Below, in pieces: positions 17,926 to 53,898 of a stretch of DNA of 64,000 bases. Source of the DNA: Candidatus Eiseniibacteriota bacterium (GTDB taxonomy: Bacteria > Eisenbacteria > RBG-16-71-46); NCBI GenBank assembly GCA_038231135.1, contig JBBRLX010000013.1, positions 1 through 64,000 of the forward strand. The letters run 5' to 3'. The notes beneath the pieces are model-generated. The model was not told the origin of the DNA and did no database searches. It worked only from the letters and a program-made list of their open reading frames with translations. The position numbers were made by a program, and so were the translations under genes. Position 1 is the first letter of the stretch, and each line of letters starts with the position of its first letter.

Positions 17926-19275
17926 TCAACCGATCTTCCGCTCGATCTCGCGGCGCAGGGCCTCGCGCACGCGATCGAGTGGAATGCGGTCGAGCACCGG
18001 AGCGAAGAACCCCTCGACGATCAGCCGCTGCGCCTCGAGCCGCGGCAGGCCCCGCGCCATGAGGTAGTACATCTGCTCGTCGTCGACGTGCCCGATCGTC
18101 GCGCCGTGCGTGCAGCGCACGTCGTTCGCGAGGATCTCGAGGCCGGGGATGCTGTCGGCGCGAGCCTGGTCCGACAGCAGCAGGTTGCGGTTCGCCTGGT
18201 AGGCGTCGGTGCGCTGGGCGCCCTCGCTCACCTGGATCAGCCCCTGGTACACGCTGCGCGCGCGGTCCTTGAGGCAGCTCTTGATGAGCAGGTCGCTCGT
18301 CGTGTGATCGACCAGGTGCCGCTGCAGCGTATGCACGTGGAAGTGCTGGCGTGAGTCGCCGAACATGAACCCGTGCACGAATGCCTGCGCGCCCGGGCCG
18401 GCGAGATCGAAGTACGCATTCGCCTTCGCCATCCGGCTGCCGAGCACCGTCTGCACCCACTGCAGCTCGGCCCCGCGGCCGATCCGGGCGCGGTGGTTCG
18501 AGTACTCGTAGACGTTGCGGTCCCAATCCTGAAGCGTCGCGAACACCAGCCGGGAGTCGTCGCCGACGAACACCTCGGTGCCGCCCAGGTGGCTCGTGAT
18601 GCCGTTGCCGCTCTGGGACAACTGCTCGTCGATCACGGTGGCCTGGGCGTTCCTGCCCAGCACCACGACCGACCGCGTCGCCGCGATCACGCCGGGCGCG
18701 TCGAGCCACTGCACGAACCGGATCGGCAGCGCCGCCTGGACGCCGTCCGGCACGTGAACGAACACGCCGCCCGCGTGCAGCGCGGATCCGATCGCGGTCC
18801 ACCGGTCGTAGGCGCCGTCGATCAGCGAGCCGTAGTGAGCCTGCAGCAGGCTGCCATGGTGCGCGAACGCGTGCTCGAGCGAACACACCGTGACGCCCTG
18901 GCGGGCCAGCTCCTCGGGCACGCTCTCGAATACGACGTCGCGGTTGTGCTGGACGACGATCGCGGCGGCGCCGGCGTCCTCGGCCAGACGGTCGCGAACC
19001 GCCTCCGGCAGATCGCCGAGCGAGCGAGCCGGTGCGCCGGACACGAACGGTTCGAGACTGCCGATCGCCGCCTCGAGCGTGCGGAAGTCGGTGCGACGCC
19101 ACAGCTCGTCCTCGCGGCCGGGGAACGGCAGCACGACCGCCGCCGCGGCGGCGATGCGGCGCTGCTCCGCGGCCCACTCGGGCTCGCCGGCGGCGCGTGC
19201 CCGCGCGGCGGCACGTGTGAACCAGGCATCGAAATCGAGAGCCGGTGGCGGCGCCATCTGAACGGGCATCGTCAT
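17926..19275 (-). CDS. sufD: Fe-S cluster assembly protein SufD
   Basis: [25 protein letters not shown]. Confidence 0.95.
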
Positions 19276-20687
19276 CCGACCGAGCCCTCCATCTGGAGCT
19301 GGATCAGGCGGTTCATCTCGACCGCGTATTCCATCGGCAGCTCCTTCACGATCGGCTCGATGAAGCCCGACACGATCATCGCCGCGGCCTCCTCCTTGCC
19401 GATGCCACGGCTCTGCAGGTAGAAGATCTGCTCGTCGCCGATCTTGGACACCGTCGCCTCGTGCCCGATCGAGACCTGGTCCTCTTCGATCTCCATGTAG
19501 GGATACGTATCGGACCGCGATTCCGGATCGAGGATCAGCGCGTCGCAATTGACCGTGCTACGGCTGTTCACCGACCCCTTCGTGACCTTGACGAGCCCGC
19601 GATAGCCCGCGCGCCCACCGTCCTTGCTGATGGACTTCGAGATGATCTTGCTCGTGGTGTTCGGCGCCGCGTGCGTGATCTTGGCGCCCGCGTCCTGATG
19701 CTGATCCTTGCCCGCGAACGCGATCGACAGCACCTCGCCGTGGGCCCCCGGCTCCTTGAGGATGACGGCGGGGTATTTCATCGTGAGCTTGGATCCCAGA
19801 TTCCCGTCGACCCACTCCATGGTGGCGTCTCGATACGCGACGGCACGCTTCGTCACCAGGTTGTAGACGTTGTTCGACCAGTTCTGAATGGTCGTATAAC
19901 GGCACCGGCCGCCACGCTTCACGATGATTTCGACAACCGCGGAATGCAATGAATCACTCGAATATATCGGGGCGGTACAGCCTTCCACGTAATGCACGTA
20001 CGCGCCTTCGTCGACGATGATCAGCGTGCGCTCGAACTGGCCCATGTCGCGGGTGTTGATGCGGAAGTACGCCTGCAGCGGCACGTCGACCTTGACGCCC
20101 TTGGGCACGTAGATGAACGAGCCGCCCGACCACACCGCGGAATTGAGCGCCGCGAACTTGTTGTCGTTGAACGGAATCACGGTGCCGAAGTATTCGCGGA
20201 ACAGCGCCTCGTGCTCCTTGAGCCCGTGATCGCACGACAGGAAGATCACGCCCTGCTGCTCGAGGCTCTCCTTGATCTTGTGGTACACGACCTCGGAGTC
20301 GTACTGGGCGCCCACGCCCGACAGGAACTTCTGCTCCGCCTCGGGAATGCCGAGCTTGTCGAACGTGCGCTTCATGTCGGCGGGCACGTCGTCCCACGAC
20401 TTCACTTCGTCCGACGTCGGCTTGACGTAGTAGTAGATGTCCTGGAAATCGATGTGCGTGAGATCGCCACCCCAGGTGGGCAGCGGCTTCTTCCAGAACG
20501 TCTCGAGCGCCTTCAGCCGGTAGTCGAGCATCCACTGCGGCTCGCCCTTCATGGCCGAGATCTCGGCCACGATCGCGGGATCGAGGCCCTTACGGCTCTT
20601 GAACACGTGCTGCTCTTTGTCGTGGAACCCGAACTTCTCCGCGTATTCGCCGCGAAGGTCGAGCCCGGTGTTGTCGGTCGTGGTCAT
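19272..20687 (-). CDS. sufB: Fe-S cluster assembly protein SufB
   Basis: [29 protein letters not shown]. Confidence 0.97.
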
Positions 20688-21484
20688 CGTGCCTCCACTT
20701 CGTTCGCGACGCGGACCCAGTCGTAGCCCTTGCCTTCGAGCTCCAGCGCGAGGCCGGGGCCGCCGGACATCGCAATGCGGCCGTCGATCATGACGTGCAC
20801 GAACTGCGGCTTGATGTAGTTGAGGATGCGGTTGTAGTGCGTGATCACGAGCACGCCCAGCTCCGGACCCGCGAGCGTGTTCACGCCCTCCGACACGATC
20901 TTGAGCGCGTCGATGTCGAGTCCGGAATCGGTCTCGTCCATCACCGCGATCTGCGGCTTGAGCAGCGCCATCTGGAGGATCTCCGCGCGCTTCTTCTCGC
21001 CACCCGAGAAGCCGTCGTTCAGGTAGCGGGTCGCGAACGACTCGTCCATGCGGAGCTTCGCCATGCTGTCGCGCAGCAGCGCCCGGAATTCCTTGGGGTT
21101 GATCCCCTTGCGATGCGGCACCGTGCCGTTGCCCTCGTGGCCCGCCTGCAGCCGCGCGTTGAGCGCGGTGCGCAGGAAGTTCGCGACGGTGACGCCCGGG
21201 ATCGCGACCGGATACTGGAACGCCATGAACAGGCCGCGGCGCGAGCGCTCGTCGGGCTCGAGTCCGAGCACGCTGTCACCCTGGAACAGGATGTCGCCGC
21301 CGGTCACCTCGTAGCGCGGATGCCCCATGAGCGTGTTCGCGAACGTGCTCTTGCCCGAGCCGTTCGGCCCCATCAGCGCATGGATCTGGCCCTTGCTCAC
21401 TTCGAGGGACAGCCCCTTGAGGATTTCCTTGCCCTCCACGGCCACATGGAGGTCCCTGACGATCAGATCCGGCGTCGTGCTCAT
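20684..21484 (-). CDS. sufC: Fe-S assembly ATPase SufC
   Basis: [28 protein letters not shown]. Confidence 0.97.
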
Positions 21485-21581
21485 TCAGATTCCTCGATTC
21501 CGCGATTCGCGGTCGGTTGCGTGTCGATCGGCACCGCGCTCGCGGTGTTCATGCGCCGGGGGCTCCGGCGCGGCAGTTGCA

Positions 21582-21944
21582 TCAGGCGGAGAAGCTCTCT
21601 CCGCAGGCACAGTTGTGACGCACGTTCGGGTTGTTGAACTTGAAGCCCGAGCCCATGAGGCCCGTCACGAAGTCGATCTCGGTGCCCGCGAGCAGCGTCA
21701 TGCTCTTCACGTCCACCACCAGCTTGACGCCATTGCTGTCGACGATCTGATCGCCCTCGGCGCCGCCGTCACAGAACTCCATGAAGTACGAATTGCCGGA
21801 GCAGCCGCCGCCGCGCACCCCGATGCGGAGAGCCTGTTCGGGGGTTCCGCGCTGCGTGAGCAGCTCTTTTACCTTGTCCGCCGCGGCCAGCGACATCGTG
21901 ACGCCGGTCCGGATGGGATTCTGATTCATGATCGGAAGAGTCAT
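21582..21944 (-). CDS. sufA: A-type Fe-S carrier (IscA/SufA/HesB)
   Basis: GGGCSG...NPN...CACGESF. Confidence 0.93.
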   Translation of the reverse strand: MTLPIMNQNPIRTGVTMSLAAADKVKELLTQRGTPEQALRIGVRGGGCSGNSYFMEFCDGGAEGDQIVDSNGVKLVVDVKSMTLLAGTEIDFVTGLMGSGFKFNNPNVRHNCACGESFSA

Positions 21945-21963
21945 GGCGCTCGTGGGTCCTCGT

Positions 21964-22518
21964 CTATGGGTCGGTTCGGGTGTGAATGTCTTCGATGCGA
22001 ATCATCGCCCGCGCGGCCGGGCGTTGCGGCGACGACGTGAGACCGGCGACCAGCGCCGGCTCCTGATCCACGCCGTGATCGAATGAACAATGGACGCAGC
22101 CCAGGACGTCGTCCGGGGAGTCGCAGCGACGGCACGTTTCGAGCCACGCCAGCCCCTCGCCCAGCTCGCGCTCAAGCTGCTGATATTTTCGAATCGACTC
22201 GCGCGTGTCCCCGAGCTTGCGCTCGAACAACGCGCGCAAATCGTTCATCGCCTCGGTGCCGATGCCGGATCCCCACCACGCCTGCAGCAGCTCACGCATG
22301 TCCTGCAGCGAGAACCCCAGCGTGTGGAGCAGGTCGATCCAGCGCACCCGGTCGGCCGCCGCGGGCTCGTACAGCCGGAACCCGCCGCTCGACCGGGTCG
22401 CCGGCTGCAGCAGACCCAGCTCCTCGTAGAGATGGATCGCCCGGACCGTCTTACCGGTCTGGCGGGCCAGGTCTCCGATGCGCAGCAACTGAGGATGTTG
22501 GATCACCGGCGCTCCCAT
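21964..22518 (-). CDS. MerR-family regulator with C-terminal CxxC-x8-CxxC
   Basis: RIGDLARQTGKTVRAIHLYEELGLL...GFRLY; tail CRRCDSPDDVLGCVHC. Confidence 0.9.
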   Translation of the reverse strand: MGAPVIQHPQLLRIGDLARQTGKTVRAIHLYEELGLLQPATRSSGGFRLYEPAAADRVRWIDLLHTLGFSLQDMRELLQAWWGSGIGTEAMNDLRALFERKLGDTRESIRKYQQLERELGEGLAWLETCRRCDSPDDVLGCVHCSFDHGVDQEPALVAGLTSSPQRPAARAMIRIEDIHTRTDP

Positions 22519-22525
22519 CGAGGCC

Positions 22526-22585
22526 AACCCTTACGTACACGTTAGATTCACACTGGAACGTACCGCGCCACGGTGAGTTCGTCAA
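22526..22585 (-). promoter_or_regulatory. Sigma70-like promoter of the merR-suf operon plus downstream dyad
   Basis: TTGACG (22585-22580), 17 nt, TACGTT (22562-22557); imperfect dyad CCTTACGTACACGTTAG at ~22529-22545. Confidence 0.55.
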
Positions 22586-23131: not shown

Positions 23132-23641
23132 ATGCATGACTCGAGGAACAGGTGGCTCACCGCGCTGCTCGCGATCGCGATCGCGACTCCGGTCGCGTCC
23201 GCCGCGCGCGCGGACGTGCAGGTCAACCTCACGGCGCAGCGCGTCGTCCACGACACCCAGGGCCACGACGTGCTGGTGGCCGGCGATCAGGCCCGTCCGG
23301 GCGAGTTGCTCGAATACCGCGCGGTGTATCGCAACACCGGCTCGCGGAACGTGCAGAAGTTGATGGCGACGCTGCCCATTCCGCAGGGCATGGAATACGT
23401 CCCGAGCACGGCCGCGCCCGCCCTGGTGCTGGCGAGCACCGACGGCCGGAAGTTCGAGCCGGTTCCGTTGCAGCGCAAGGTCCGGCTCACCGACGGGCGT
23501 GAGGTCATGCGCGACGTGCCGGCCGGCGAATACCGCTGGCTGCGCTGGCCGATCGGCACGCTGCCCGGTCGCGGCGAGCGCCTGGTGCAGGCGCGCGTGC
23601 GGGTGTCCTCGCTGGTCGCCGTCTCGAATTCACGCCACTGA
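23132..23641 (+). CDS. Secreted single DUF11-like protein lacking the isopeptide Lys/Asp (putative chaperone)
   Basis: GGAGGA RBS; signal peptide ending ARA; ARPGELLEYRAVYRNTG...LPIPQGMEYVP...VQARVRV. Confidence 0.8.
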   Translation: MHDSRNRWLTALLAIAIATPVASAARADVQVNLTAQRVVHDTQGHDVLVAGDQARPGELLEYRAVYRNTGSRNVQKLMATLPIPQGMEYVPSTAAPALVLASTDGRKFEPVPLQRKVRLTDGREVMRDVPAGEYRWLRWPIGTLPGRGERLVQARVRVSSLVAVSNSRH

Positions 23642-23769
23642 TTCCTACGTGTCCCGGCGCCGCGACTCCGGTCGCGATGGCGCCTCGAAAACGCATTTCC
23701 GCGCGCTTCCCCGGCGTGGCCGTCCACGGCTCAACGTTCGTCCCTCGCATTGAATCGGAGTGCCCCACC

Positions 23770-26379
23770 ATGATCGGTGTTCATCCTGTTCCCGGCCGCC
23801 GCACGTCGCGCATCCTGTGCGCGGCGCTGCTCGGCGGCTCCCTGCTGCTCGCGACACTCGCGGGCGTCCGCTCCGCCATCGCGGCCCCGGCCGCCGGCAC
23901 GCCGATCGGCAACCAGGCCTCGGCGTCCTACCTCGACGCTTCGTCCACGAGTCGCACGGCGACGTCCAATCTCGTGACCACGATCGTGCAGCAGGTCGCG
24001 AGCTTCACGCTGAACGCCAACGGCAACCGCATCGCGGCGCCGGGCGGCCAGGTGGTGTTCCCGCACTCCCTCACCAACACCGGCAACGGCACGGATACGT
24101 TCCCGCTGTCGCTGACGAATCTCGGCGGCGACAACTTCGACCTCACCGGGCTCACGATCTACCCGGACGCGAACGGCGACGGCGTGCCCGACAACTACAC
24201 CGCGATCAACACGACCGGGCCCCTCGTGGCCGGCGACGTGTTCCAGTTCGTGGTCGTGGGCAACGTGCCCGGCACGCAGATCGGCGGTGACATCTCGCGC
24301 GTGCGCGTGAACGCCGCGAGCGCGTTCGATGGCGCTCAGACCTCGACGAACACCGACGTCACCACGGTGTCCGGCAACGCGGTGATCAGCGTCACCAAGT
24401 CGATCAGCCAGCCCGCCGGCAACTCGCCCAGCGGTCCCTATACCTACACGCTGTCCTACACGAACTCCGGCAACAACGCCGCCACGGCCCTCAAGCTGTC
24501 GGACGCGATTCCCGCCGGCATGACGTATGTCGCGGGCAGCGCGCGGTGGAGCGTGACCGGCGCCGCGGTGCTCACGGACGCGAGCAACGTGGACGCGCAG
24601 GGTGTCGTCCCGAACACCGTGGTCTACGACTTCGGCGTCACCGCGGGCGGGACCATGACCGCCACGATCAACACGGTGCCCGCCGGCGGGAACGCCACGC
24701 TGACGTTCAACGTCAACGTGAACGCGGGCCTCGGGCCGCAGACGATCAACAACAGCTCCACCTACTCGTACAACGATGGCGCAGGCAACGTGGGTCCGTT
24801 CACGACGAACCTGGCGCCGTTCGACATCAACCAGAGCGTGTCGCTCACGTTCACCGGCCAGACGATCGCGGCGGCGGTGCAGGGCGCGACGCTCACGTAC
24901 ACGAACACGGTCACGAACACCGGCAACGGTTCCGACCGGTTCGACATCACGTTCGGCACGAACACGTTCCCGGCCGGCACGAACATGACGCTGTACCAGA
25001 GCGACGGCGTCACGCCGCTCTCGGACTCGAACGGCAACGGCACGCCGGACACCGGTCCGCTCGCGGCCGGTGGCACGTACGCCATCGTGCTCAAGGCCAT
25101 GCTGCCGCCGTCGGCCACCGGCGGTCCCTACTCGGTGCAGAAGATCGCGACGTCGGTGTCGGATCCGTCGCGCACCGCCACGGCCACCGACGTGCTGACT
25201 ACGATCACGGCGAACGCGGTCGACGTCACGAACAACTCGGTCGGCGGTCCCGGCGTGGGCGCCGGCCCCGAAGCCTCCGCGGTCGTGACGCTGCCTATCC
25301 TGCCCGGCAACACCGGGCGGTTCACGCTGTTCGTCACGAACAACGCGACGCTCGCGGACAACTTCGACATGGCGGCGAGCACCGACCCGACGTTCGCGTC
25401 GGTCACGCTGCCCGCCGGCTGGGGTGTGACGTTCCGCAACGTGGTGAACGCGGTGATTACGAACTCGGGCAACGTCGGCGCCACGAACAGCGTGCAGGTG
25501 TTCGCCGACGTGACGGTGCCGGCGGGCTACGTGGCGGGCACGGTGGACCTGTACTTCCGCGCGCGCTCGCCCGTGTCGCTCGCCACCGACCGGCTCCACG
25601 ACGCCGTGAGCGTCACGGCGCAGCGCGGCCTGACGCTGGTGCCGAACGGCAACGGCCAGGTCACGCCGGGCGGCGTGACGACCTACACCCACATCCTGGC
25701 GAACACCGGCAACGTGGTGGAGGGCGCGGGCACCGGCAGCGTCGTCGCGCTCACGATGACGAATTCGCAGGGGGCGTGGGGATCGGCACTGTACGTCGAC
25801 TCCAACAACAACGGCTCGTTCGACGCGGGTGACGCGGCGATCTCCGATCTCGGCACGCTCGGCGGCATCGCGCCGGGGGCCAGCCTGCGACTGTTCGTGC
25901 GGGTGTTCTCGCCGGCCGGAGCCCCGATCGGCCAGACCGATCTCACCACGCTGACCGCGACGACCACGAACGGCACGTACATCACCTCGGTGCCGCCGGT
26001 GGTGCAGGCGACCGACCAGACCACGGTGCTGAACGGCCAGCTGTCGATCGTGAAGCAGCAGGTGCTCGACGCCAACTGCGACGGCGTTCCCGACGGCGCG
26101 TACGGCGGCGGCAACATCACGGCCGGCGCCAACCCCGGCGTGTGCCTGCGATATCAGATCGTGGTCACCAACGTCGGCACCGCGTCGGTGACGAACGTGG
26201 TGGTGGACGACGCCACTCCGGCCGGCACGAAGTATTCGAGCGCGGTCGCGGCGTCCGTCACGCAGGGGTCGATCGTGACCCCGGCGAACGGCGCGGCGGG
26301 ATCGGTGGTGGCCACCATCGGCACCATCGCCCCCAACCAGTCGGTGACGATCACGTTCGGCATCCGGATCGACCCGTAG
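23770..26379 (+). CDS. Secreted multi-Ig DUF11 protein (putative major filament subunit)
   Basis: Signal peptide; N-terminal GTPIGNQA segment; repeated TNTGNxxDxF Ig modules; one complete and one C-terminally truncated DUF11. Confidence 0.85.
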   Translation: MIGVHPVPGRRTSRILCAALLGGSLLLATLAGVRSAIAAPAAGTPIGNQASASYLDASSTSRTATSNLVTTIVQQVASFTLNANGNRIAAPGGQVVFPHSLTNTGNGTDTFPLSLTNLGGDNFDLTGLTIYPDANGDGVPDNYTAINTTGPLVAGDVFQFVVVGNVPGTQIGGDISRVRVNAASAFDGAQTSTNTDVTTVSGNAVISVTKSISQPAGNSPSGPYTYTLSYTNSGNNAATALKLSDAIPAGMTYVAGSARWSVTGAAVLTDASNVDAQGVVPNTVVYDFGVTAGGTMTATINTVPAGGNATLTFNVNVNAGLGPQTINNSSTYSYNDGAGNVGPFTTNLAPFDINQSVSLTFTGQTIAAAVQGATLTYTNTVTNTGNGSDRFDITFGTNTFPAGTNMTLYQSDGVTPLSDSNGNGTPDTGPLAAGGTYAIVLKAMLPPSATGGPYSVQKIATSVSDPSRTATATDVLTTITANAVDVTNNSVGGPGVGAGPEASAVVTLPILPGNTGRFTLFVTNNATLADNFDMAASTDPTFASVTLPAGWGVTFRNVVNAVITNSGNVGATNSVQVFADVTVPAGYVAGTVDLYFRARSPVSLATDRLHDAVSVTAQRGLTLVPNGNGQVTPGGVTTYTHILANTGNVVEGAGTGSVVALTMTNSQGAWGSALYVDSNNNGSFDAGDAAISDLGTLGGIAPGASLRLFVRVFSPAGAPIGQTDLTTLTATTTNGTYITSVPPVVQATDQTTVLNGQLSIVKQQVLDANCDGVPDGAYGGGNITAGANPGVCLRYQIVVTNVGTASVTNVVVDDATPAGTKYSSAVAASVTQGSIVTPANGAAGSVVATIGTIAPNQSVTITFGIRIDP

Positions 26380-26459
26380 CACCGGGCCGGTCTTCATCCT
26401 TCCGCTCCGCGGCGCCATCCTTAGCGATGCGCGCCGCGGAGCACGGGTGTTCGTCCGCC

Positions 26460-29400
26460 ATGCAGATGATCGAAGCGCGTTCCGGGTGCCGGTTCCGTCT
26501 CCCCGCCTGGTTCGCGGTGGTGGCGGGCTTCGCCATGGGCGCTCTGAGTGAGGTCGCGGCGCCACCGGCGATTGCGGGCGCGCCGCCCGGCACGCCGATC
26601 GACAACGTGGCCTCCGGGACCGGCATCGACAGCGCGACGCTCGAGCCGATCGAGGTGCGATCGAACCTGGTGCGGGCGATCGTCGGCACGTCGCAGGCCA
26701 TCGTGCTCGACGGCAGCGACACTCGAACGGCGCCGCCCGGCGCGCACCTCACATTCGCCCATCACGTGGCCAACCTCGGCAACGTCGCGACCACGGTGCG
26801 ATTCAGCTGTGCGACGGGGGCCGGCAGCGACTTCACGCTCGCGAACCCGGCGCTGCTCGTGGACGTGAACGGCGACGGCATCGCCGGGCCCGGCGAACCC
26901 GTGCTCGCGAGCGGCGATTCGCTGACGCTCGGCCCCGGCGAGGCCGCCGAGCTCGTCGCGCAATGCGACGTGCCCGCGGCCGCGGCCGGTTCGAGTCGCG
27001 CCATGCTCGAGGTCGGCGCGTCGCCCACGTTCGGCGGCCCCGTCCTCACGGCCACGGACACCGTGCTCACGCCGCCGCCGCCCACGATCGCGTTCTACGG
27101 CGACGGTTCGTTCGCCGCGCCGATCCGGGTGTCGTCCGCCAACCGCCCGCTGTATCTGCAGGCGGTGGCGCCGGGCTGCGACCTGCGCCCCGGCGTGCGC
27201 GACACGCTGCAGCTCGCGATCCGCTCCGTCCTCACCGGCGACGTGCAGAACTTCCGCGCGATCGAGACCGCGGCCAACTCGGGCGTGTTCCGCGTGGAGC
27301 CGTACGTCGCCACCGCGCTGGTGGGCGCGCTCGCGACGACTTCGCCGGGAGTGCTCCAGGTGCGCCCCGACGACGAAGTCGTCGCCACGCTCGACGGCTG
27401 CGGCGGAACGCAGGTCGAGGCGCGGGTATTCATCGAGCCGCGCGGCGTGGTGTTCGACGCGGCGAACGGCTATCCGGTGGCGGGAGCGCGCGTGGCGCTG
27501 ATCGACGTCACCGGCGCCGCCAACGGCGGCGACGCCGGCGGCCCCGCGCGCGTGTTCCTGGCGGACGGCGTCACTCCCGCGCCCGCGGACGTGCTCACCG
27601 ACGCCTCGGGCCGCTACCACTTCGAATGGGTCGCCGCGAGCACGTATCGCGTCGACATCGCGGTCCCCACCGGCTTCGGGTTCCCGAGCGCGCTCGCGCC
27701 GGGTGCGGTCGCGCCCGGCTACGTGATCGACGCCGACGGCTCCTACGGCCGGCCCTTCACGATCGCCGCGGGCGGCGGTCCGGTGCGGTTCGACCTGCCG
27801 CTCGACGCGCTGGGCACCGCCACGATGTTCGTGGAGAAGTCCGCTGGCCGGCCGTTCGCGGAGCCGGGCGACGCCGTGGACTACACCGTGCGGATCGTGA
27901 ACGCCTCGACGCGCGCGATCACCGCGGCGCGACTGGACGACGCGCTGCCGCCGGGGTTCGCCTACGTGCCGGGCACGGCGCGCCTCGACACCCGCGCCCT
28001 CGCCGACCCCTCCCCCGGCGCGCGCGTGTCGTTCGCGCTCGGCACGCTCGCGCCGAACGCGACGGTCGAGTTGCGCTACCGCGCGCGGATCGGCGCCGGC
28101 GCGGCCCCCGGCGATGCGTGGAACCGCGCCGTCGCGTCGGGCGACGGCGCGTCGTCCAACGTCGCTGCGGCGAAGGTGACGGTGACGGGCGGGGTGTTCG
28201 CCGACGAGGCGGCGCTGCTGGGCACGGTGTACGTCGACCGGAACGGCGACCGCCGGCGCGGATCCGACGACCCCGGCATGCCGGGCGTGCGGCTGTATCT
28301 CGACGACGGCACGTTCGCGATCAGCGACGGCGCGGGCCAGTACAGCTTCTACGGCATCACGCCCCGCACGCACGCGCTGCAGGTCGATGCGACCACGCTG
28401 CCGCCGGGCGCCCGGCTGCTCGCCACGTCGCACCGCGACGCCGGCAGTCCCGGATCGCGCCTGGTGGCGCTTCAGCGCGGCGATCTGGTGCGCGCGGACT
28501 TCGCGCTCGCCGCGGATTCCGTCACGCGCGAGGCGCCGGCCGAACGGCGCCGGCTCATCGCAGGCGACGACGAGCTCGGCCGCGGGGTGCACCGGCCGCT
28601 CGACACCCACGACGATCCGGCGCTGCCCGGCGACCCGCGTTCGCGGCCGCCGGCGGGACTCGTGGACGAGGGCCGCCGCATGCCGCTGTTCGGCCCGGCC
28701 GCGCGCCAGCAGGGTGCGAACCTGCCGGGCGACGCCGCGCCCATCGTGGCGCCGGCGGCATCACCGGCGCCGCCGCCCACGGCACAGCAGCCGGATCCCA
28801 GGGAATCGACTTCGATCGGTGATGCCGGAGCACCGCCGCGCGGGATGGACGGCGGAGCGCAGGACATCGTCGAACGCTCGCTCGCCACCGACGTCGGCAC
28901 CGGATTCATCGGCCTCGCCGACGGCGACACGCTGGACGTGGATCAGATCACGGTGCGGGTGCGCGGGCGGCAGGATCACGCGCTCGAGCTGAGCGTGAAC
29001 CACGTGGCGATCCCCGCCACCCGGGTGGGACGCCGCGTGACGCTCGAGCGCCGCGGAGCCGAGGCGTGGGAATACGTGGGCGTGAACCTCGCGCCGGGCC
29101 CGAACCTGCTCGAGTTGACCGAGCGTGACGCCGGGGGCGCCGCGACCGGGCACGCCGCCATCACGGTGCTCGCGCCCGGGCACTTCGAGCGCATCGAGCT
29201 GCTGGCGCCGGCCACCGTCGCGGCCGACGGACACTCGGATGCCGTGGTGCGGTGCGCACGCTCGACGCGCATGGGGTGCCCGCGGCCTGCCGCTCGATCG
29301 TGACGCTCGAGACCACCCGCGGCCAGTGGCACACGACCGATCTCGATCCCGCGTCTCCGGGGCTGCAGATCGCCGTGGTGGGCGGCACCGCCGAGGCGCG

Positions 29401-31936
29401 GCTCACGGCGCCGTCCGAGCCCGGCACGGCGACGGTGCGCGCCACGGCCGGCGGCATTCACGGCGACGCGCCGCTCGAGTTCGTACCGGAGCTGCGGCCG
29501 CTGCTCGCGGTCGGCAGCGTGGAGGGCATGCTGGCGTGGAATCGTGCGCGGGGATTCGCGACCCGCGACCTCGCGCGCACGGGGTTCGAGCAGGCGTTCA
29601 CGAGTCTCGTCGCCGGGTCCGACGACGGCGGTCTCGGCGGCGGCGCGCGCGCAGCGCTGTTCCTCAAGGGACGGCTGAGCCGCGACGTGCTCGTCACGCT
29701 CGGCTACGATTCCGACCGGCCGGCGAATCTGCGCCGCCTGCGCGACATCCAGCCCGACGCGTTCTATCCCGTCTATGGCGACGCCTCGGTGCGCGGCTAC
29801 GAGGCGCAGTCGACGGGCCGGCTGTATGCGCGCCTCGATCGCCGCGGCGCGGCACTCGCCTACGGCGACTTCGTCGCGCAGGGCGCGAGCGGCGCGCAGA
29901 GCCTCACCCAGTACAGCCGCAGCCTCACCGGCGTCCAGCAGCACTGGGAGAGCTCGCGGCTGCGCGTCGACACGTTCGCCAGCCGGGCCCTGGCGGGCGA
30001 GCGCGTGGAGGAGTTCCCCGGCCGTGGCATCTCGGGACCCTACACGCTCGCGCGCGCGCCGATCGTCGAGAACAGCGAGCGCGTCGAGATCGTGGTGCGG
30101 GACCGCAACCAGCCGTCGGTGATCGTGACCGCCACCGCGCGCGAACGCTTCGCCGACTACGAGATCGAGCCGCTCACCGGCCGGATTCTGTTCAAGGAGC
30201 CGGTGCCGGCGTTCGACGCCGCGCTCGACCCGGTGTCGATCCGCGTGAGCTATTCCGTGGAAGGCGGCGGGGATCCGGTGTGGGTGTCGGGCATGGAGAC
30301 GCGGCTCAAGCTTGGCGGCGCGAGCGAGGTCGGCGCCACGCTCGTCGACGACCGCGACCCGCTCCATCCCTACCGGCTCGGCGGCGTATTCTTCGGCCAT
30401 CGCCTGGATGCGCGCTCGACGTTCGAGGCGGAGCTCGCCCACTCGGCGAACTCGGGCGCCGGTGGCAGCGCGGCGCGGTTCGAGCTGCGCCGCGACGGCG
30501 CCGATGGCGATGGCCGGCTGTTCGGATCGATCACCGACGGCGGCTTCGTCAATCCCCACGCCGGCTTCAGCCCCGGTCACGGCGAGGCCGGCCTGCGCTG
30601 GAACAAGCGGCTCGACGCGCGCACGCGCCTGCTCGCGGACGGCGTGTTCAGCTCCGACGCCGCGGCCGCCACGCGGCACGGCGGATTGCTGCTCGGCCTC
30701 GACCGCTCGTTCGGCGGCTCGGTGCACGGCGAGTTCGGCGCCCGCATCGCGGGCGAGCACGCCCGCCCCGGCCCCACCGATCCCACGAGCCTGTCGCTGC
30801 GATCCAAGCTGCTCGCCCAGCTGCCGTGGCATCCGGAGCTGAGCGCCTACGGCGAATACGAGCGCGACGTGCTCGGCACCGGGCGCGAGCTCGCAGCACT
30901 CGGCGCGGAGTACCGGTTGCGCGCGCACGGGCGCCTGTATGTGCGCCACGAGCTGGCGTCCACGCTGGGCAGCGCATTCGAGCTGTCGACGTCGCAACGC
31001 CGGCTGGCATCCGTGGCCGGGTTCGACGCGGACCTCGGTCCCTCGACGCACGTGTTCAGCGAATACCGGATCGCCGACGCGCTGCCCGCCCGCGAGGCCG
31101 AGGCGGCTCTCGGGCTGCGCAACACCTGGCAGCTCGATGGCGGGCTGCGCGTCACCGGCGCGTTCGAGCGCGTGCACCCGCTGCAGGGCGGCGACGGCAC
31201 GGGCCCGAGCACGGCGGTGAGCGGCGGCATCGAATCCACCGACGCGGACGACGTCAAGGCGTCGGCGCGCATGGAGCTGCGCACCTCGCGCGCCAGCGAC
31301 AACTGGCTGTCGAGCACCGCGGTCGCGGTGCGGCTCGACAGCTCGTGGTCCGCGCTTGGCCGCAATCTGGCCACGATCACCGACGAACGCGCCGCCGGCG
31401 TCACCACGCGCGAGCGCATGCAGCTCGGCCTGGCGTTCCGGCCCTCGGACGACGCGGCGTTCGACGCGCTCGGTCGCTACGAGCTGCACCTGGATCGCGA
31501 GCACCCCACGCCCGTCACCCGCAGCCGCCGCACGGCCCACGTACTGTCGGCCAATGTCACCGGGCAAATGTTCGACGTGGTGGACGTGTCGTTCGCGTAC
31601 GCGGCCAAGCGCGTGTTCGACCGGTCCGATGCCATCGGCTCGAGCGGGTCCGCGCAATGGGTGCACGGCCACTGGTCGCGCGAGTTCGGCGCGACCTGGG
31701 ATGCGGGACTCAACACCAGCGCGCTGTTCGCGGACGGCGGACGGCGCGACGGCCTCGGCGTCGAGCTGGGCCGCAGCCTCGCAAACGGCCTGTGGCTGTC
31801 GGCCGGCTGGAACCGGTTCGGGTATTCCGACCCCGATCTGCCCGACGAGACCTACACGCGCGCCGGCTTCTACATGCGCATGCGCGCCCGGCTCGCGCCG
31901 TCGCTGTTCGACCGGCTCACGCGGGGGACGCCGTGA
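26460..31936 (+). CDS. Large secreted DUF11/SdrD-B/Ig protein with C-terminal OM beta-barrel; split by a 1-nt frameshift at ~29251
   Basis: ORFs ending at 29303 and 31936 join as ...DAVVRVRTLDAHG... if one G is restored (~1825 aa). The last ~800 aa show amphipathic beta-strand patterning. Confidence 0.8.
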
Positions 31937-34900
31937 TGCGGCGGCTCGTTGCGGGGCTCCGCGTGGCCGCCACCGCCGCGGTGATCGCGGCGACGCTGTT
32001 CGCCGCGGGCACGGCCCGGGCGCAGATCGTGCGCTCGTTCACGCCGCGGTTCTCGACCAACGACCACGGCGACGTGACGCTGATCGGCAACACGCTGATG
32101 AGCTGCAGCGGCAACGGCAATGCCTGCAAACAGGGCCGTCTCGGCGCCGGCGGCAGCATCAACGACGACGACTTCGCGATGGCGTACGTCGACATCGACG
32201 CCGACGGCACCACGTTCTGCTCCAGCAACGCCACGTTGGCGCTGCCGGTGGGCGCCACGGTGCTGTGGGCGGGTCTCTACTGGCAGGGCGATTCCAACAA
32301 TGGCGCGCGCAACCAGGTGAAGTTCTCGACGCCGGTGGCGGCCTACACCGCGATGACCGCGACGCAGCTCGACGTGACCGGCACCGCGTATCAGGGGTTT
32401 ATCGACGTCACCGCGCGCGTGCAGGCGGGCGGCAACGGCGCCTATACGGTGGCGAACGTACAATCGACGACGGGCGCGACCTATTTCGCGGGCTGGGCGC
32501 TGGCCGTGGCCTACCGGCTCGCCAGCAATCCCTCGCGCAACCTGGTGGTCGAGGACGGTTACGCCCAGGTCGCGGCCGGCGCCACGGTGACGATCCCCGT
32601 GAGTGGGTTCCTGACGCCACCCGGCGGCATCGTGAACACGCGGCTCGGCGTGGTGACGGGCGAGGGCGACCTCGGCCTCACGGGAGACGCGTTCCAGATC
32701 AACGGCACGACGTTGTCCGACGCCGCGAATCCGGCGGACAACTTCTTCAACAGCTCGATCAGCCAGTTCGGCGTCAACGTCACCACCAAAAACCCCAACT
32801 ACGTGAACCAGCTCGGCTGGGACGTCGACATGGTGTCGGCGAACGGCGTGCTGCCGAACGGCGCGACGAGCGCCACGATCACGCTGACGTCCGCCAGCGA
32901 CCGCTACTACCCGTCGGTCGTGACGTTCGCGACCGATCTCTACCAGCCGGTGTACACCGGCAACGGGTTCTTCAAGTCGGTGGCCGATCTCAACGGAGGA
33001 TCGGTGCGGCCCGGCGACGTGCTGGAGTACACCGTTCGCATGAACAACTCCGGCGACGATGCCTCGACGAACACCGTCGTGCGCGACACGCTGCCCGCCA
33101 ACGTCACCTACGTCGCGGGCTCGCTGTCGGTGGTGAACGGCCCGAACACCGGCGCCAAGACCGACGCAATCGGCGACGACGTGATGGAGTACGACCCGGC
33201 CACGCGCATCGTCACCGCGCGACTCGGCACTGGCGCCACGGGCACGCTGGGCGGCCGCGTCGACCCGGACGTGCAGACCACCGTGAAGTTCCGCGCGGCG
33301 GTGAACCTGCCACTCGCGAACGGCAGCGTGGTGTCGAACCAGGCGCTCGCGAATTTCAACGCCGCCCAGCTCGGCACCGCGCTCAGCGCCGCGAGTGATG
33401 CGGACACGCTAACCGCGGGCAACCAGCGCACGAATGTGACGGTGGTGGCCCAGACGCTGAGCGGCACCGTGTTCGAGGACGTGAACTACGGCGGCGGCGC
33501 CGGGCGCACCAAGGCGGCGTCCGCCGGCGTGGCGCGGCCGGGCGCGCGCGTCGAGTTGTACGGTGCTGCCGGCCAATACCTCGCGGCCGACACCACCGAC
33601 GTCAATGGCCTGTACTCGTTCGACGGCATCGGCCCCGGCAGCCTCACCGTGCGGGTCGTGAGCTCCATGGTGACGTCGTCGCGGCCCGGCGCCGTCGCCG
33701 GACTGCTGCCGGTGCAGACGTTCCGCGTGGACGCCTCCAGCGGCGCCGCGGTGAACGACGCGGTCCGTGTCGGCGGCGAGGTGCCGTCCAAGGTCGACGC
33801 CGGCATGAACACGACGAACGCGACGCTGGCGTCGCTCACGACGGCCGGCGCGACCGCTCAGTCGATCGCGCCGGTCACCACGGGCACCGTCAACTTCACG
33901 GGCGTGGACTTCGGGTTCAACTTCGATGTCATCGTGAACGCCAACGACTCGGGCCAGGGCAGCCTGCGGCAGTTCCTGACCAACGCGAACGCGCTCCAGA
34001 ACACCGGCCTCGCGCAGTCCGGGCTCACCGGCGGCATCGAGACGTCGATCTTCATGGTCAGCGACGGCGCCGCCCACGCGGGATTGCGGACCGGGCTCGC
34101 GAGCCTGCTCACCGGCGGCGTTGTCGCGATCGCCCCCATCACGACGCTGCCCGCGATCACCGACCCGGCGCGGCTCGACGGCACCACGCAGACCACGAAC
34201 GTCGGCAACACCAACGCGGGCACGCTGAATTCCACGATCGCGGTGGGCGCCGACGGCCTCACGGTGACCGCACTCGCGCGGCCGGAGGTTGAGATCAAGG
34301 ACGGCGCCAGCCTGGCGCTCGGCGTCGACGTGCAGGCGTCGGGCGTCACGCTCACCGGGCTCGCGATCTATGGCTTCGGCAACACACCGGCGAACGACGC
34401 CCACGCCAACGTGCGCATCGGTGCGACCGCGGGCACGGCGGTGATCGACGGGTGCGCGATCGGCGTGAGCGCCTCGAGCTTCGCCGACCCCGGCGCCGCG
34501 GCGCGCAGCGGTGGCGACGCGGTGCGTGTGATCGGCGGCGACGACGGCATCCTGCGCAACAGCATCGTGGCCTACGCGGCGGGCAACGGCGTCGCGCTGG
34601 CGACGAACTCCGATCGCTGGACTCTCACCGGCAACGAGATCCGCGGCAACGCCATCGGCAATGCGTCGCGCGACGCGGTGTCGCTCGAGGCGAGCGCGAG
34701 CGACGTGGTGCGCGGCAACCGCATCGCGGACACCGAGGGCTGCGGCATCGACGCTCGCACCAGCACCGGGTCCGGCACGTTCGAGAACAACACGATCTCG
34801 CGCAGCGGCCTCGGCGCCGCCGGCACGCCCGAGACGCCCGGGGTGCGGCTCGGGGGTACGGCGAACCGCGTCGACCGCAACGTGCTGTTCGACAACTACG

Positions 34901-36876
34901 GCGCGGGCGTGCTGGTGATGTCGAGCTCCTCGGCGAACACCATCACCAAGAACTCGATGTACAACAACGGCGGCATCACGAACAACGCCGCCGCCGCCGC
35001 GACCGGACAGCTCGGCATCGATCTCGAGTCGGCCACGGACGACGTGAACCGCGGCACCGCGCCCTATGTGACGCTGGACGATCTCGCCGACGCGGACGCG
35101 GGCGGCAACGGGCTCTTGAACTTCCCGGTGCTCGAGAGCGCCGTGCTCGCGGGCGGCAACCTGACGCTCACCGGCTGGGCGCGACCCGGGTCCGTGATCG
35201 AATTGTTCGTGTCGGATTCCGATCCGTCCGGATTCGGCGAGGGCAAGACCTGGCTGACGACACTCACCGAAGGCTCGGTGTCGGACCTCGACGCGTCGTC
35301 GAGCACGTTCTCCGGCACGATCAACGGACTCGTCCAGGGCACCGACAACACGAACCGGTTCCGGTTCACGTTTGCGGCCCCGGGGGGCGTCGCGGGCGGC
35401 GTGCGGCTCACGGCGACCGCCACGCTGTCGCAGGCGACATCCGAGTTCTCGGGACAGGTCACCGTCGCGGGCGGCGTGAGTGTGGCGGGCTATGGCTATC
35501 TGGATGTGAATCACAGTCTCAATCGCGACGCGGCGGAGGCCGGCACCGGCGCCACGCTCTACGCGAAGCTCGTCGCGTCCTCGACCCCGGGCAGCGCCCA
35601 GGCGGTCGTGGCGATCGACGCCGTGACCGGCGCGTATGCGTTCTCCTACGTGACCGCCGGTACCTACACGATCGTGCTCGACGACAACAACGCCGCGAGC
35701 GACGTCGCTCCCGCCTATCCCGTGGGCATGATCGGCACCGAGGTTTCGAACGGGGCGCGCCCGCTCACGGTCGCCAACGCGAACCTGGCGGACCAGGACT
35801 TCGGCATGTGGCGCGGCAGCCGGGCCGACGGCATCGTGTTCCGCGACGACGGCGCGGGCGGCGGCACCGCCAACGACGGCGTGAACCAGGCCGGCGAGGG
35901 CGCCGTGGGCGGCGTGCGCGTCGCGCTCGCGAACGCGGCGTGCGCAGGCGGCCGCTGCGACAGCACGCTCACCGACGGCGCGGGTGCCTTCACGCTGTGG
36001 ATCCCGAACGGCGCCGTGGGCACCAGCACGCAGGCGCTCGAGACGAATCCCTCGGGCTGGGTGTCCACCGGCGGCGGCGCCGGGACGACCGGTGGCGCCT
36101 ACTCGCGCAACTCCGACATGGTCACGTTCACCCCGGCAGGCGGCGTGGCGTATTCCGGGCTCCGGTTCGGGGACGTCCCGCCCAACACGTTCGCGCCGAA
36201 CGGCAACCGCAGCGGCACACCGGGCGCCGCGGTGTTCCACCCGCATACCTTCATCGCCGGCAGCGGCGGCAGCGTGAGCTTCACGGCCGTCGAATCGCCG
36301 TCGCCCGCGATTCCCGGCTGGACGGCGGAGCTGTACCGCGACCTGAACTGCAACGGCAGCGTGGATGCCGGCGACAACCCCGTGACGGCACCCGTGGTCG
36401 TGACCGCGGGTCAGACGCTATGCCTCGTGCTCAAGCACTTCATCCCCGGCGGCGCGCCCGCCGGCGCCAGCGAGCAGGTGACACTCGGCGCCAGCATGAG
36501 CTACACGAACGCGTCCCCCGCGCTCGTCACGGTCGTGTCGCTGGGCGACCGCACGACGGTGATCTCCGCCGGCAGTCTCGAGATCGTGAAGACCGTGGAC
36601 CTCGCGAGTGCCAGGCCTGGCGACGTGCTCACCTACACGATCACCTACCGCAACCTGGGGCCCGCGCCGCTATCGGCGATCCTGCTGCAGGACGCCACTC
36701 CCGCCTACACCGTGTTCCAGAGCGCGAGCTGCGGCGCCGCCGGCAACGGCATCACCGCCTGCAACGTGACCGCGCAACCGGCGGTGAACGCGTCCGGCCC
36801 GGTGCGCTGGACGCTGACCGGCGCACTCACGCCCGGGGGAGCGGGGGCGGTGACGTTCCAGGTGAAGGTGCAGTAG
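31936..36876 (+). CDS. Large secreted adhesin (head domain, DUF11, SdrD-B-like, parallel beta-helix, truncated C-terminal DUF11)
   Basis: TGATG overlap; signal peptide ending ARA; SGTVFEDVN and GIVFRDDG SdrD-B-like starts; GNxI/NxI beta-helix rungs; 1646 aa. Confidence 0.85.
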   Translation: MRRLVAGLRVAATAAVIAATLFAAGTARAQIVRSFTPRFSTNDHGDVTLIGNTLMSCSGNGNACKQGRLGAGGSINDDDFAMAYVDIDADGTTFCSSNATLALPVGATVLWAGLYWQGDSNNGARNQVKFSTPVAAYTAMTATQLDVTGTAYQGFIDVTARVQAGGNGAYTVANVQSTTGATYFAGWALAVAYRLASNPSRNLVVEDGYAQVAAGATVTIPVSGFLTPPGGIVNTRLGVVTGEGDLGLTGDAFQINGTTLSDAANPADNFFNSSISQFGVNVTTKNPNYVNQLGWDVDMVSANGVLPNGATSATITLTSASDRYYPSVVTFATDLYQPVYTGNGFFKSVADLNGGSVRPGDVLEYTVRMNNSGDDASTNTVVRDTLPANVTYVAGSLSVVNGPNTGAKTDAIGDDVMEYDPATRIVTARLGTGATGTLGGRVDPDVQTTVKFRAAVNLPLANGSVVSNQALANFNAAQLGTALSAASDADTLTAGNQRTNVTVVAQTLSGTVFEDVNYGGGAGRTKAASAGVARPGARVELYGAAGQYLAADTTDVNGLYSFDGIGPGSLTVRVVSSMVTSSRPGAVAGLLPVQTFRVDASSGAAVNDAVRVGGEVPSKVDAGMNTTNATLASLTTAGATAQSIAPVTTGTVNFTGVDFGFNFDVIVNANDSGQGSLRQFLTNANALQNTGLAQSGLTGGIETSIFMVSDGAAHAGLRTGLASLLTGGVVAIAPITTLPAITDPARLDGTTQTTNVGNTNAGTLNSTIAVGADGLTVTALARPEVEIKDGASLALGVDVQASGVTLTGLAIYGFGNTPANDAHANVRIGATAGTAVIDGCAIGVSASSFADPGAAARSGGDAVRVIGGDDGILRNSIVAYAAGNGVALATNSDRWTLTGNEIRGNAIGNASRDAVSLEASASDVVRGNRIADTEGCGIDARTSTGSGTFENNTISRSGLGAAGTPETPGVRLGGTANRVDRNVLFDNYGAGVLVMSSSSANTITKNSMYNNGGITNNAAAAATGQLGIDLESATDDVNRGTAPYVTLDDLADADAGGNGLLNFPVLESAVLAGGNLTLTGWARPGSVIELFVSDSDPSGFGEGKTWLTTLTEGSVSDLDASSSTFSGTINGLVQGTDNTNRFRFTFAAPGGVAGGVRLTATATLSQATSEFSGQVTVAGGVSVAGYGYLDVNHSLNRDAAEAGTGATLYAKLVASSTPGSAQAVVAIDAVTGAYAFSYVTAGTYTIVLDDNNAASDVAPAYPVGMIGTEVSNGARPLTVANANLADQDFGMWRGSRADGIVFRDDGAGGGTANDGVNQAGEGAVGGVRVALANAACAGGRCDSTLTDGAGAFTLWIPNGAVGTSTQALETNPSGWVSTGGGAGTTGGAYSRNSDMVTFTPAGGVAYSGLRFGDVPPNTFAPNGNRSGTPGAAVFHPHTFIAGSGGSVSFTAVESPSPAIPGWTAELYRDLNCNGSVDAGDNPVTAPVVVTAGQTLCLVLKHFIPGGAPAGASEQVTLGASMSYTNASPALVTVVSLGDRTTVISAGSLEIVKTVDLASARPGDVLTYTITYRNLGPAPLSAILLQDATPAYTVFQSASCGAAGNGITACNVTAQPAVNASGPVRWTLTGALTPGGAGAVTFQVKVQ

Positions 36877-49968: not shown

Positions 49969-51598
49969 CTACTTCATCGCTACGAGCCGCCGCGTTCCAT
50001 GGAGCCTACCGTCCACGAGGAACCGAAGCACGTAGATTCCGGGGCCCGATTCCAAGCCGCCGGCTCCTTCCCGCCGCCAAATTATCGTGTGCTCACCAGC
50101 TGACTGCGCGGCGTCGACCAGCGTCGCGATTCGTCGCCCATGAATGTCGAACAAGTCGAGCTTGACCATACCTTGCTTGGCTACAGTGTAGGCGATGCGG
50201 ACCGCGCCGCTCGACGGGTTCGGCCCAATGGCTCGGATCCCGGAAACGTATCCTTCGCCGTCTCTCACGCCGAGATACGGCGTCAAGTAAACGGACGCCT
50301 CCGATGACATCCCCGAGCTACCTGTCGCGTTCACTGCCGCACGTAGTAGAACACTGAGTCGGTCGACGGCGGGGTTTGGTCGAGAAATGATGTGCCCGTG
50401 AGAGGGCCGAAAATGACCGGGGGCGCGGTGGGATACCGCTGTCGGACCGTGGCGCAATCGGTCAAGTGTACCCAATCGCGATACAGGTAATAGCCGGTGA
50501 CGGTCCCAGCCGACGCCGTCCATGATATCTGGACGCCGCCCTCGCTCGTGCTCACCGTCGCCGAGGTGTTCGTTGGCGTAGAAGGTGGCGTCGAAGACGT
50601 TCCCTGGGTTCGGGCACTCGTCGTGTACCCCGTGGTGACCCCCGGTACGTTCAGCTCATAATAGTAGGCGCGATTATAGGTGGCGGGCACTGTCCACTGG
50701 TAATGGCGGTTGTCAGACGTGACAGAAAGGTCGTGGCTGTCGAACGACCCGAGCAACGCATACGGCCCCCAGCACGCATCGGAAGATAGAATTTGGTACG
50801 TGTAGCTCCTCGATGGGTCGCTCTCCTCCCAACGGAGCGTGTCACCCGCCGTCGCGGGTGATGCCGTAAACGCGTAGCTGACCTCAGTCGGCGCATCGTA
50901 AAGGTGCTCTATCCCCTGAATGTCCCAAAATTCCGGTGTGATTTGGAACGTGCCGCACTCAAGCCCGACCCCCCACATGGTCACTGAATCGCAGGCCGCA
51001 ATGCTCGCGTTGTTATAGGGTGGCCCGACATCAAAAAGCCCCCACCAGTGCCCCATCTCATGGGTCAGCACGCCGGTGAGGTCCGCGTGCGAGTAGGTGG
51101 GATCGCAGTTGCTCGTATAGCAATCGGTCACCCAGTCAAAGGTGGGGTTGTCGCCACGGACATACGTCCTGCAACGCTTGTGGGTGCCGTCCGGGAAGTA
51201 TGAAATGAACGTGATTGCAAGTGAGCCACTCGTTGGGGATCCCCAGTAGCTCGAGTACACGCTGTTGCTTAAGACGTCCACCATCAGCGCCTTAGTCGTT
51301 CTGTGCCGGCCGATTCGATGAACACCGGGAAGGACGTGTCGTCGTACCAAGTGCCATAAGCATCGAAGACGGTCTGGTTGATTGTCGCGTTACCTATGGG
51401 GGTCTCGGTGATTGAGCCCAGGACACCGTAGAGAAGGTACGACCCCGAACTGAAACGGTGGCAATAAATGCCACCGCCGTAGTTATAGCGCGAAACCACG
51501 TAGCAATCACTGGATTCGGGACCGCATTGGGCGTGCACGTTGGACGCGAAGGCTTCCCCGACAATCATCCCCATTATGCGCTTAGAGAGCATGATCAC
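49969..51598 (-). pseudogene. Metzincin (matrixin-like) + FN3 + FlgD-Ig protein broken by two frameshifts (~51300, ~50338)
   Basis: Three overlapping ORFs: signal/N-terminus; HEMGHWWGLFD with Met-turn SVTM and FN3; PNP..FDIHGRRI..GIY tail. Restoring one G gives YYVRAVN. Confidence 0.75.
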
Positions 51599-52428: not shown

Positions 52429-52680
52429 TCCATGCCTCCACGGCTAACGCGAACATCACGTCCGGTCAAGACTGCCGCCCAGAAAACATACATTACACAA
52501 CCCCGACGAGACTTTTACTACGCACTCGCAAATCTTCTCACGATATGTGCCCCAAGCCCAACAGGGTCGGACCACGGGACCGGGGACGTTCGCCAACGAA
52601 GACTGGAGAGCGCCGCAACAACAGCAATGCGGGTGGTTGGCTGGGGCCGTGGTGCGAAGGGTCATCGGGAAAATCCGAAC

Positions 52681-53448: not shown

Positions 53449-53745
53449 CGGTCGAGATCGCGCACGACGAGGTCACGAGCTGGTTCCACGGGCCCGAACG
53501 GCCTCAGGATCTCGAATCGCAGATCACCCAGTCCCCTGAGCCAGCCTGCCGGCGTAACGACGTCGAGCTTGCCGTCGCCGTCGAAATCGGCCGCGATGGG
53601 GACCGTCGGAGGCCCGGCCAGGAGTCCGTATGGGCCGTGGAACGGCAACTCCTCGGCCCACAGCACCGAAGGCGCACCGACGACCGCAACGATCAGCAAC
53701 CCCGCGGACAGCGCTTCGGCGGATGCCCGGACGAGCCGAGGCCAT
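53409..53745 (-). pseudogene. Truncated secreted FG-GAP/VCBS repeat protein
   Basis: AADFDGDGKLDVV, then DLVVRDLD cut at the rep junction. The signal peptide needs a frameshift in G4 at ~53700. Confidence 0.55.
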
Positions 53746-53898
53746 CGAACGCGAGTTGCCGGCTCCGAAGCGATCACTACTTGATTGTATCCCGCTTCCA
53801 GGTTCCAGCGCTCCACGAAAACCCGGTCGCCACCTTGGCGCCCCCCCTCCCTTCTGGAATGATGCGACCGGAGCCACCCAACCCGTCGGGAGTCCCAC

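Follow-up and report, generated by a model that had tools for sequence, protein, structure and literature searches.

A four-gene operon of Candidatus Eiseniibacteriota predicted to encode a sortase-free surface fiber of divided CLIPPER domains

Results and Discussion

Organization of the operon

The first 64,000 nucleotides of contig JBBRLX010000013.1 (assembly GCA_038231135.1, Candidatus Eiseniibacteriota), hereafter the window, carry an operon of four genes in the same orientation that encode a small secreted protein, a pilin, a barrel protein and a tip adhesin. Our analysis points to a surface fiber in which truncated C-terminal DUF11/CLIPPER domains (sockets) are completed in trans by an N-terminal segment (tab) of another subunit and are probably locked by isopeptide bonds, running from the adhesin through n pilins to a predicted outer-membrane barrel, a reading we regard as fairly likely. 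The features are as follows.

23132 to 23641, forward strand: small secreted protein, 169 amino acids (aa), whose DUF11-like domain is a socket only and has neither the Lys nor the Asp of the isopeptide
23770 to 26379, forward strand: pilin, 869 aa, with signal peptide, donor tab, immunoglobulin (Ig)-like domain, complete DUF11 (K210/D245/N328), three Ig-like domains and C-terminal socket
23893 to 23988, forward strand: pilin donor tab, residues 42-73, with Asn48
26041 to 26376, forward strand: pilin C-terminal socket (K762, D814, Cys770-Cys792 pair), which stops just after FxVxV
26460 to 31936, forward strand: whole barrel gene, in two frames in the assembly
26460 to 29303, forward strand: barrel 5' frame, with signal peptide, donor tab, stalk domains, complete DUF11 (K460/D494/N555) and SdrD_B
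26586 to 26684, forward strand: barrel donor tab, residues 43-75, with Asn49
29245 to 29255, forward strand: one-base frameshift in the barrel gene
29252 to 31936, forward strand: barrel 3' frame, a predicted large outer-membrane beta-barrel that matches no known family
31936 to 36876, forward strand: tip adhesin, 1646 aa, with signal peptide, head, complete DUF11 (K347/D384/N468), SdrD_B, beta-helix and C-terminal socket; no tab
36577 to 36873, forward strand: adhesin C-terminal socket (K1552, D1586)

Each of the four proteins begins, as judged by eye, with a hydrophobic signal-like N-terminus and an Ala-rich site, and close homologs carry Ca. Eisenbacteria labels. No promoter-like site was found for the operon, and terminator-like sites were no more frequent than chance.

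A DUF11 domain divided between proteins

The DUF11 motifs quoted in a preliminary description of this DNA were found where it had placed them, and the complete internal domains of the pilin, barrel and adhesin each carry the Lys/Asp/Asn triad that it reported, with PF01345 scores of 45.9, 36.3 and 43.6 bits, respectively, above the curated cut-off of 24.6. All three triad residues thus lie inside one domain of one chain in the internal DUF11s, which is not the case in the terminal sockets, since these stop before the Asn strand. The C-terminal domain of the pilin matches only positions 14-81 of the 114 in Pfam DUF11 and that of the adhesin 2-84 of 114, and the proteins end 6 residues past F863 and 5 residues past F1641. 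These observations bear out the earlier account, in which both C-terminal domains keep Lys and Asp (K762/D814 and K1552/D1586) and end at FxVxV, while the absent Asn segment follows the signal peptide of the pilin (N48) and of the barrel protein (N49). Its term "donor strand" held for the donated Asn segment and failed for the single strand, the tab being predicted as a two-strand hairpin of ~30 residues. As read from sequence, the terminal domain of the pilin and adhesin is a putative CLIPPER/DUF11 fold without its last two strands, which a tab elsewhere appears to supply.

Profile-profile alignment with hhalign matched the N-terminal tab to the second half of the internal DUF11 (P = 95.8%) and the socket to its first half (P = 98.1%), with 0.2% for tab against socket. 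Conservation was followed across 123 pilins, comprising the window protein, 112 full-length sequences of the 150 listed 50%-cluster representatives and 10 closer homologs. The donor Asn, on whose conservation the preliminary description depended, is kept (N48 in 122/123), as are K762 (121/123) and D814 (122/123); the median over the 69 Asn positions of the pilin is 28%. The split triad is jointly present in 120 of the 123 proteins (35-69% identity) and the internal triad in 119, and the C-terminus falls 6-13 residues from the F863 column in every one.

An AlphaFold2 model of the pilin is almost all beta (mean predicted local distance difference test [pLDDT] 91.8), and its tab has the strand pattern of the internal DUF11 second half. 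The highest covarying pair in the pilin is C770-C792 by mutual information with average product correction (MI-APC). A Foldseek search with the whole pilin structure returned generic Ig chains alone, and phmmer of the pilin against the Protein Data Bank (PDB) gave no match.

Natural fusions of socket and tab

Two Nitrospirota-labeled loci (L048 and L109) and the proteins P0121 and P0122 contain two to five pilin units per chain, and in these concatemers the last strand of each socket reaches the next tab within 4-8 residues. The end and the start of the window pilin align to opposite sides of the concatemer junction, and seven aligned junctions carry K in 7/7, D or E in 7/7 and N in 7/7. AlphaFold2, given an alignment of the 7 junctions and 35 socket-only rows, predicted that one junction folds into a single domain (pLDDT 93.7, predicted template modeling score 0.88) whose tab forms four short strands, as in the pilin N-terminus and the internal second half. 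Its top fold match is the pilin BcpA (VIA Z 14.8).

The only PDB sequence match of the junction profile is the CLIPPER structure 9IFR (E 0.0025), which superposes over 120/123 residues (Z 11.8, root-mean-square deviation 2.2; Foldseek rank 27). The donor Asn falls on Asn806, numbered from the CTTC motif, and the junction Asp aligns to chain residue 44, one off the published Asp748 by the same numbering. In the available part of the CLIPPER paper, Asn806 is the bonded Asn, and the Lys-Asn bond was seen by crystallography (PMC12617251). According to these models, socket and tab together make what is predicted to be one CLIPPER domain in cis, within the same chain.

Several further observations concern these fusions. 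The Thermus hypothetical protein TTHA1873 (7WWO, 7WRK; Z about 12) ranks among the best structural matches of the junction domain. The concatemer giants (L048:7352-17719 and L109:91-12537) begin with a tab and end with DUF7933 repeats and a weak dockerin-like tail (E 0.011), and they are possibly tab-only anchors standing in for the barrel at their locus; the idea that their genomes have no barrel was ruled out, as both carry 2-3 barrel genes elsewhere. The protein P0235 is a natural fusion of the N-terminal half of a pilin (tab, first domain and internal DUF11) to a barrel-type C-terminus, which suggests that the barrel stalk may derive from the pilin.

Distribution of socket and tab across genomes

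A survey of 79 loci from named genomes (the best 80 of 482 confirmed) found the small gene followed by the pilin in 76, the barrel next in 64 and the adhesin after the barrel in 48; the remaining loci without the full order mostly stop at a contig or flank edge. Among 36 complete adhesins (54 frames minus 12 that were cut off and 6 fragments without a socket match), Lys and Asp are present in the socket of 36/36, a tab in 0/36, and the C-terminus lies 6-9 residues from the last Phe column in 36/36. The barrel tab Asn is present in 62 of 64 N-termini (60 by pattern and 2 by reading; the others are 1 Ser and 1 frameshifted), and the barrel proteins end in predicted barrel-type strands, not a socket. 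The order previously proposed, with an acceptor-only tip, pilins and a donor-only barrel, therefore extends to homologous loci, and the synteny and split-half conservation that it had singled out for a survey are both kept in most of them.

The tab of the pilin is much better conserved than that of the barrel, and neither the adhesin socket nor the barrel tab has the sequence of its counterpart in the pilin. Among 41 related genomes the small and pilin genes co-occur in an identical 18, and the barrel is present in all of these and in 3 others, a count drawn from kin and not from independent lineages. Record labels place the system in Ca. Eisenbacteria, Proteobacteria, Verrucomicrobia, Acidobacteria, Armatimonadota, Nitrospirota and Thermus, and the same design occurs in plasmid loci of Thermus thermophilus HB8 (TTH_RS10905-10925), Acinetobacter haemolyticus, Pacificitalea and Sinorhizobium, where the Sinorhizobium barrel tab has Ser instead of Asn. 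On plasmid pTT27 of Thermus HB8 (L033:14716-22793), the barrel is represented by two overlapping genes, one for a tab-plus-stalk protein of 897 aa and the other for a protein of 1795 aa that resembles the barrel profile remotely (E 7e-4). The pilin on the A. haemolyticus plasmid (L034:13825-16659) is annotated in six pieces, and in this locus the barrel is separated from the last gene by a gene of the OmpA family.

The small protein as a putative catalytically dead socket

The small protein matches TIGR01451 and aligns with the pilin socket by hhalign (P = 95.5%) and not with the tab. Across 76 small proteins the Asp column holds L, V or I in 76/76 and the Lys column, which was set by strand pattern, holds no K in 76/76. 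The protein is a socket without Lys and Asp that is likely to cap tabs reversibly, in effect an inverse chaperone, and the label "chaperone" in the preliminary description is better replaced by that of a dead socket, as 0/76 keep Lys or Asp. Alternatively, the small protein could donate a strand to the sockets in the manner of FimC, using an inserted hairpin at about residues 108-130, which would alter one step only of the assembly. Its insertion relative to the pilin socket and the need of exposed sockets for protection speak for this role; we consider it rather unlikely, given that the small protein is a truncated socket too, with its end at the strand where the pilin socket stops, that it has no tab-like segment (hhalign 0.2%) and that it matched neither a PapD-family profile nor any other Pfam entry.

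The barrel protein and its one-piece paralog

The two barrel reading frames are separated in the assembly by a one-base frameshift near 29250. Run X1, possibly the source of the assembly, agrees with the window at this site, whereas run X2 of the same study has one base more and is otherwise identical to the window over 1301 bases; a contig of a relative in X4 also carries the extra base, and 11/11 relative loci that cover the junction have a single frame across it. Because X2, X4 and all 11 relatives are in frame, the barrel is normally, as predicted from these sequences, one protein of about 1825 aa. The single protein of the preliminary description is hence upheld in the sister run and the relatives, and is interrupted in the assembly.

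Pfam matches of 30 barrel homologs are weak (DUF2490 in 6/30, OMP_b-brl in 4/30, Porin_4 in 2/30), and PF03797, the type Va autotransporter family, is absent among the 14 families matched at E <=0.5. The barrel profile gave 0 matches to PDB sequences, and ESM Atlas placed the barrel, at 0.96, with unnamed or "outer membrane beta-barrel" clusters. In a rough count, 29 amphipathic strands were picked in the barrel, compared with a mean of 12 and a maximum of 22 in 200 shuffles.

A paralogous barrel (38% identity) terminates a 4862-codon frame on contig C11 of the same genome (L116:2873-17458, reverse strand), which has a head, 28 Pfam DUF11 matches (24 with the Lys-Asp-Asn pattern by regular expression), a barrel and no tab. 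Since this paralog ends the frame, the barrel family also appears to terminate one-piece head-stalk-barrel adhesins. Five similar giants were examined in relatives, some of which extend C-terminally beyond the barrel. The chain of adhesin, n pilins and barrel encoded by the operon is collinear with these one-piece giants, and the barrel would export its passenger.

Comparison with known systems

The operon domains share family (PF01345, 9IFR), Lys/Asp/Asn positions and a CnaA-like fold with CLIPPER. In the published account, as far as its available part goes, CLIPPER bonds are intramolecular and occur in tandem stalks of single-chain adhesins (PMC12617251), whereas the terminal domain of the operon is divided between proteins; the main text of that paper uses neither the word "split" nor the word "operon".

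The closest published mechanism appears, by analogy, to be the exchange-and-lock of BsaA in an unrelated family. BsaA of Clostridium perfringens, a TasA-family protein, likewise has an Asn-bearing N-terminal donor that locks autocatalytically to the Lys of a neighbor with no sortase; it differs in its Glu catalyst, single 11-residue donor, SipW processing and monoderm host, and the part of the preprint available to us describes no barrel, tip or cap (10.1101/2024.11.04.621531). Pfam and NCBIfam searches gave no TasA-family or SipW matches among the operon proteins. The archaeal thread Saci_0406 shares donor-strand complementation, a proposed intermolecular isopeptide and a putative cap, while its bond, in the sections of the paper at hand, runs from an Asn side chain to the N-terminal amine of subunit n+2, in another fold family and without an outer membrane (PMC9715654).

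Chaperone-usher pili (FimH-FimA-FimC-FimD) share an acceptor-only tip, a donor-plus-acceptor shaft, an outer-membrane barrel (predicted in the operon) and a small periplasmic helper; as described in the available portion of a review, they differ in being non-covalent, with one donor strand, single-domain pilins, a 24-strand usher and a strand-donating chaperone (PMC13721041). To judge from sequence and the fusion model, an N-terminal donor in the operon would likewise complete the incomplete Ig fold of its neighbor, with a tip that has no donor. The usher family PF00577 was not matched anywhere in the genome, which is 93% complete, whereas an E. coli control was positive; the barrel profile matched no usher. 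The terminator of chaperone-usher pili is PapH or FimI, whereas the donor-only terminator of the operon is fused to the barrel.

Sortase pili (BcpA, RrgB, SpaD) are also covalent polymers of multi-domain Cna-fold pilins, BcpA being the best fold match of the junction, but their inter-subunit bond is made by sortase at LPxTG, and no LPxTG was found in any of the five frames of the operon. The one sortase of the genome, on contig C23, was rejected as a partner, given its location on another contig, its own substrate-like neighbor and the lack of an LPxTG in the operon; the preliminary remark that the operon has neither a sortase nor a classical usher stands. The sortase gene (L117:4577-6371) adjoins a small protein ending in LPRTA and a hydrophobic stretch, and the genome also encodes predicted outer-membrane barrels. 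The operon falls outside the chaperone-usher, sortase and TasA families, with a polarity like that of chaperone-usher pili and a chemistry like that of BsaA.

Proposed assembly and alternative explanations

In the proposed mechanism, all four operon proteins would leave the cytoplasm through Sec, and the dead socket would cap tabs reversibly, blocking early polymerization or ring closure. The two-strand tab of each subunit would then complete the truncated C-terminal domain of the preceding subunit, and the rejoined Lys-Asp-Asn triad would form an intermolecular isopeptide bond. As socket and tab stand at opposite ends of different proteins, head-to-tail joining and covalent locking are both likely; complementation in trans is the step we hold with most confidence, and a covalent lock between subunits is quite probable, as is, to a marginally lesser degree, the presence of more than one pilin per chain. 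Subunits may be added tip first from the periplasmic side and through the barrel, whose own tab would terminate and anchor the chain; this route is slightly favored, and a weaker though still sizable possibility is that the barrel displays its tab and the fiber grows from it at the outer tip. That the barrel exports as well as anchors is somewhat probable. The product would be a modular, length-variable counterpart of the one-piece head-stalk-barrel adhesin in the same genome.

Several points weigh against this fiber. One triad residue is absent in 3/123 pilins, and the selection of 112 full-length proteins from 150 representatives biases the pilin set toward proteins with both ends. The top tab-socket covariation signals (z <=4.0 by MI-APC; 330 rows, effective number of sequences 154) are artefacts of invariant columns, with control domains at 3.5-3.8. 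The fusions attest that socket and tab are compatible within one chain, which is not the same as pairing between chains. Ser replaces Asn in some barrel tabs (L057 and L036), so that the basal bond would not be universal, and the frameshift may have inactivated the barrel copy in that population.

The same evidence allows other products to be considered. A fixed three-piece adhesin with no long fiber could arise if the covalent links joined a single adhesin to a single barrel through one 869-aa spacer, or very few: the distinct adhesin socket and barrel tab could encode such an order, stalk domains are already present in barrels, and the one-piece paralogs show that a finite adhesin suffices. 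We consider this unlikely, as the socket and tab of the pilin make one domain in concatemers of up to five copies, and the far stronger conservation of the pilin tab than of the barrel tab is expected if it fits several sockets. Still less probable is a non-covalent donor-strand pilus, in which tabs would fill sockets in the chaperone-usher manner and the fold alone would account for the retained triad. The bond is absent in some DUF11 domains, according to the available part of PMC12617251, BsaA N35A oligomers survive until boiling in the accessible portion of 10.1101/2024.11.04.621531, and Ser-for-Asn barrel tabs do occur; yet buried Lys and Asp in 121-122 of 123 sockets and in 0/76 small proteins are hard to explain without catalysis. 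A pilin that closes its own socket with its own tab, as a ring or small oligomer that would contribute to a matrix or to an S-layer-like structure instead of a fiber, is the most improbable of these products. The tab pLDDT of about 90 in the monomer model may reflect such self-docking, but self-closure leaves the tab-only barrel and socket-only adhesin unexplained, the concatemer geometry is linear, and a dedicated dead socket suggests that closure is prevented.

Should the polymerizing, isopeptide-locked fiber be correct, it would represent an enzyme-free covalent pilus in diderms, whereas covalently linked pili are taught, in the part of the review available, as a sortase-dependent monoderm feature (PMC13721041). 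It would also represent a new barrel family exporting folded Ig-like chains. We suggest tentatively, at somewhat less than even chances, a separate and widespread class of diderm pilus, defined by a sortase-free split-isopeptide polymer, a dead-socket inverse chaperone and a giant barrel that is both pore and terminal subunit, with one-piece CLIPPER adhesins as a further export cargo. The divided domains offer candidate natural tag-catcher pairs, analogous to SpyTag/SpyCatcher and possibly orthogonal and thermostable. No description of the operon or of a split CLIPPER was found in open PMC and bioRxiv text, a scope that excludes subscription journals and the supplements of PMC12617251, which could list such proteins. 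Mentions of DUF11 in the available parts of PMC13297417, PMC8779699, PMC9210967, 10.1101/2025.08.19.671072 and 10.1101/2024.09.26.615229 do not concern this system.

Surrounding sequence

Upstream and divergent from the operon, window positions 17926-22527 on the reverse strand hold what we take from sequence to be Suf-like Fe-S cluster genes and a MerR-like regulator. The GC content of the window dips to 0.57 at positions 1-2000 and to 0.60-0.63 at 50001-54000, compared with ~0.69 elsewhere.

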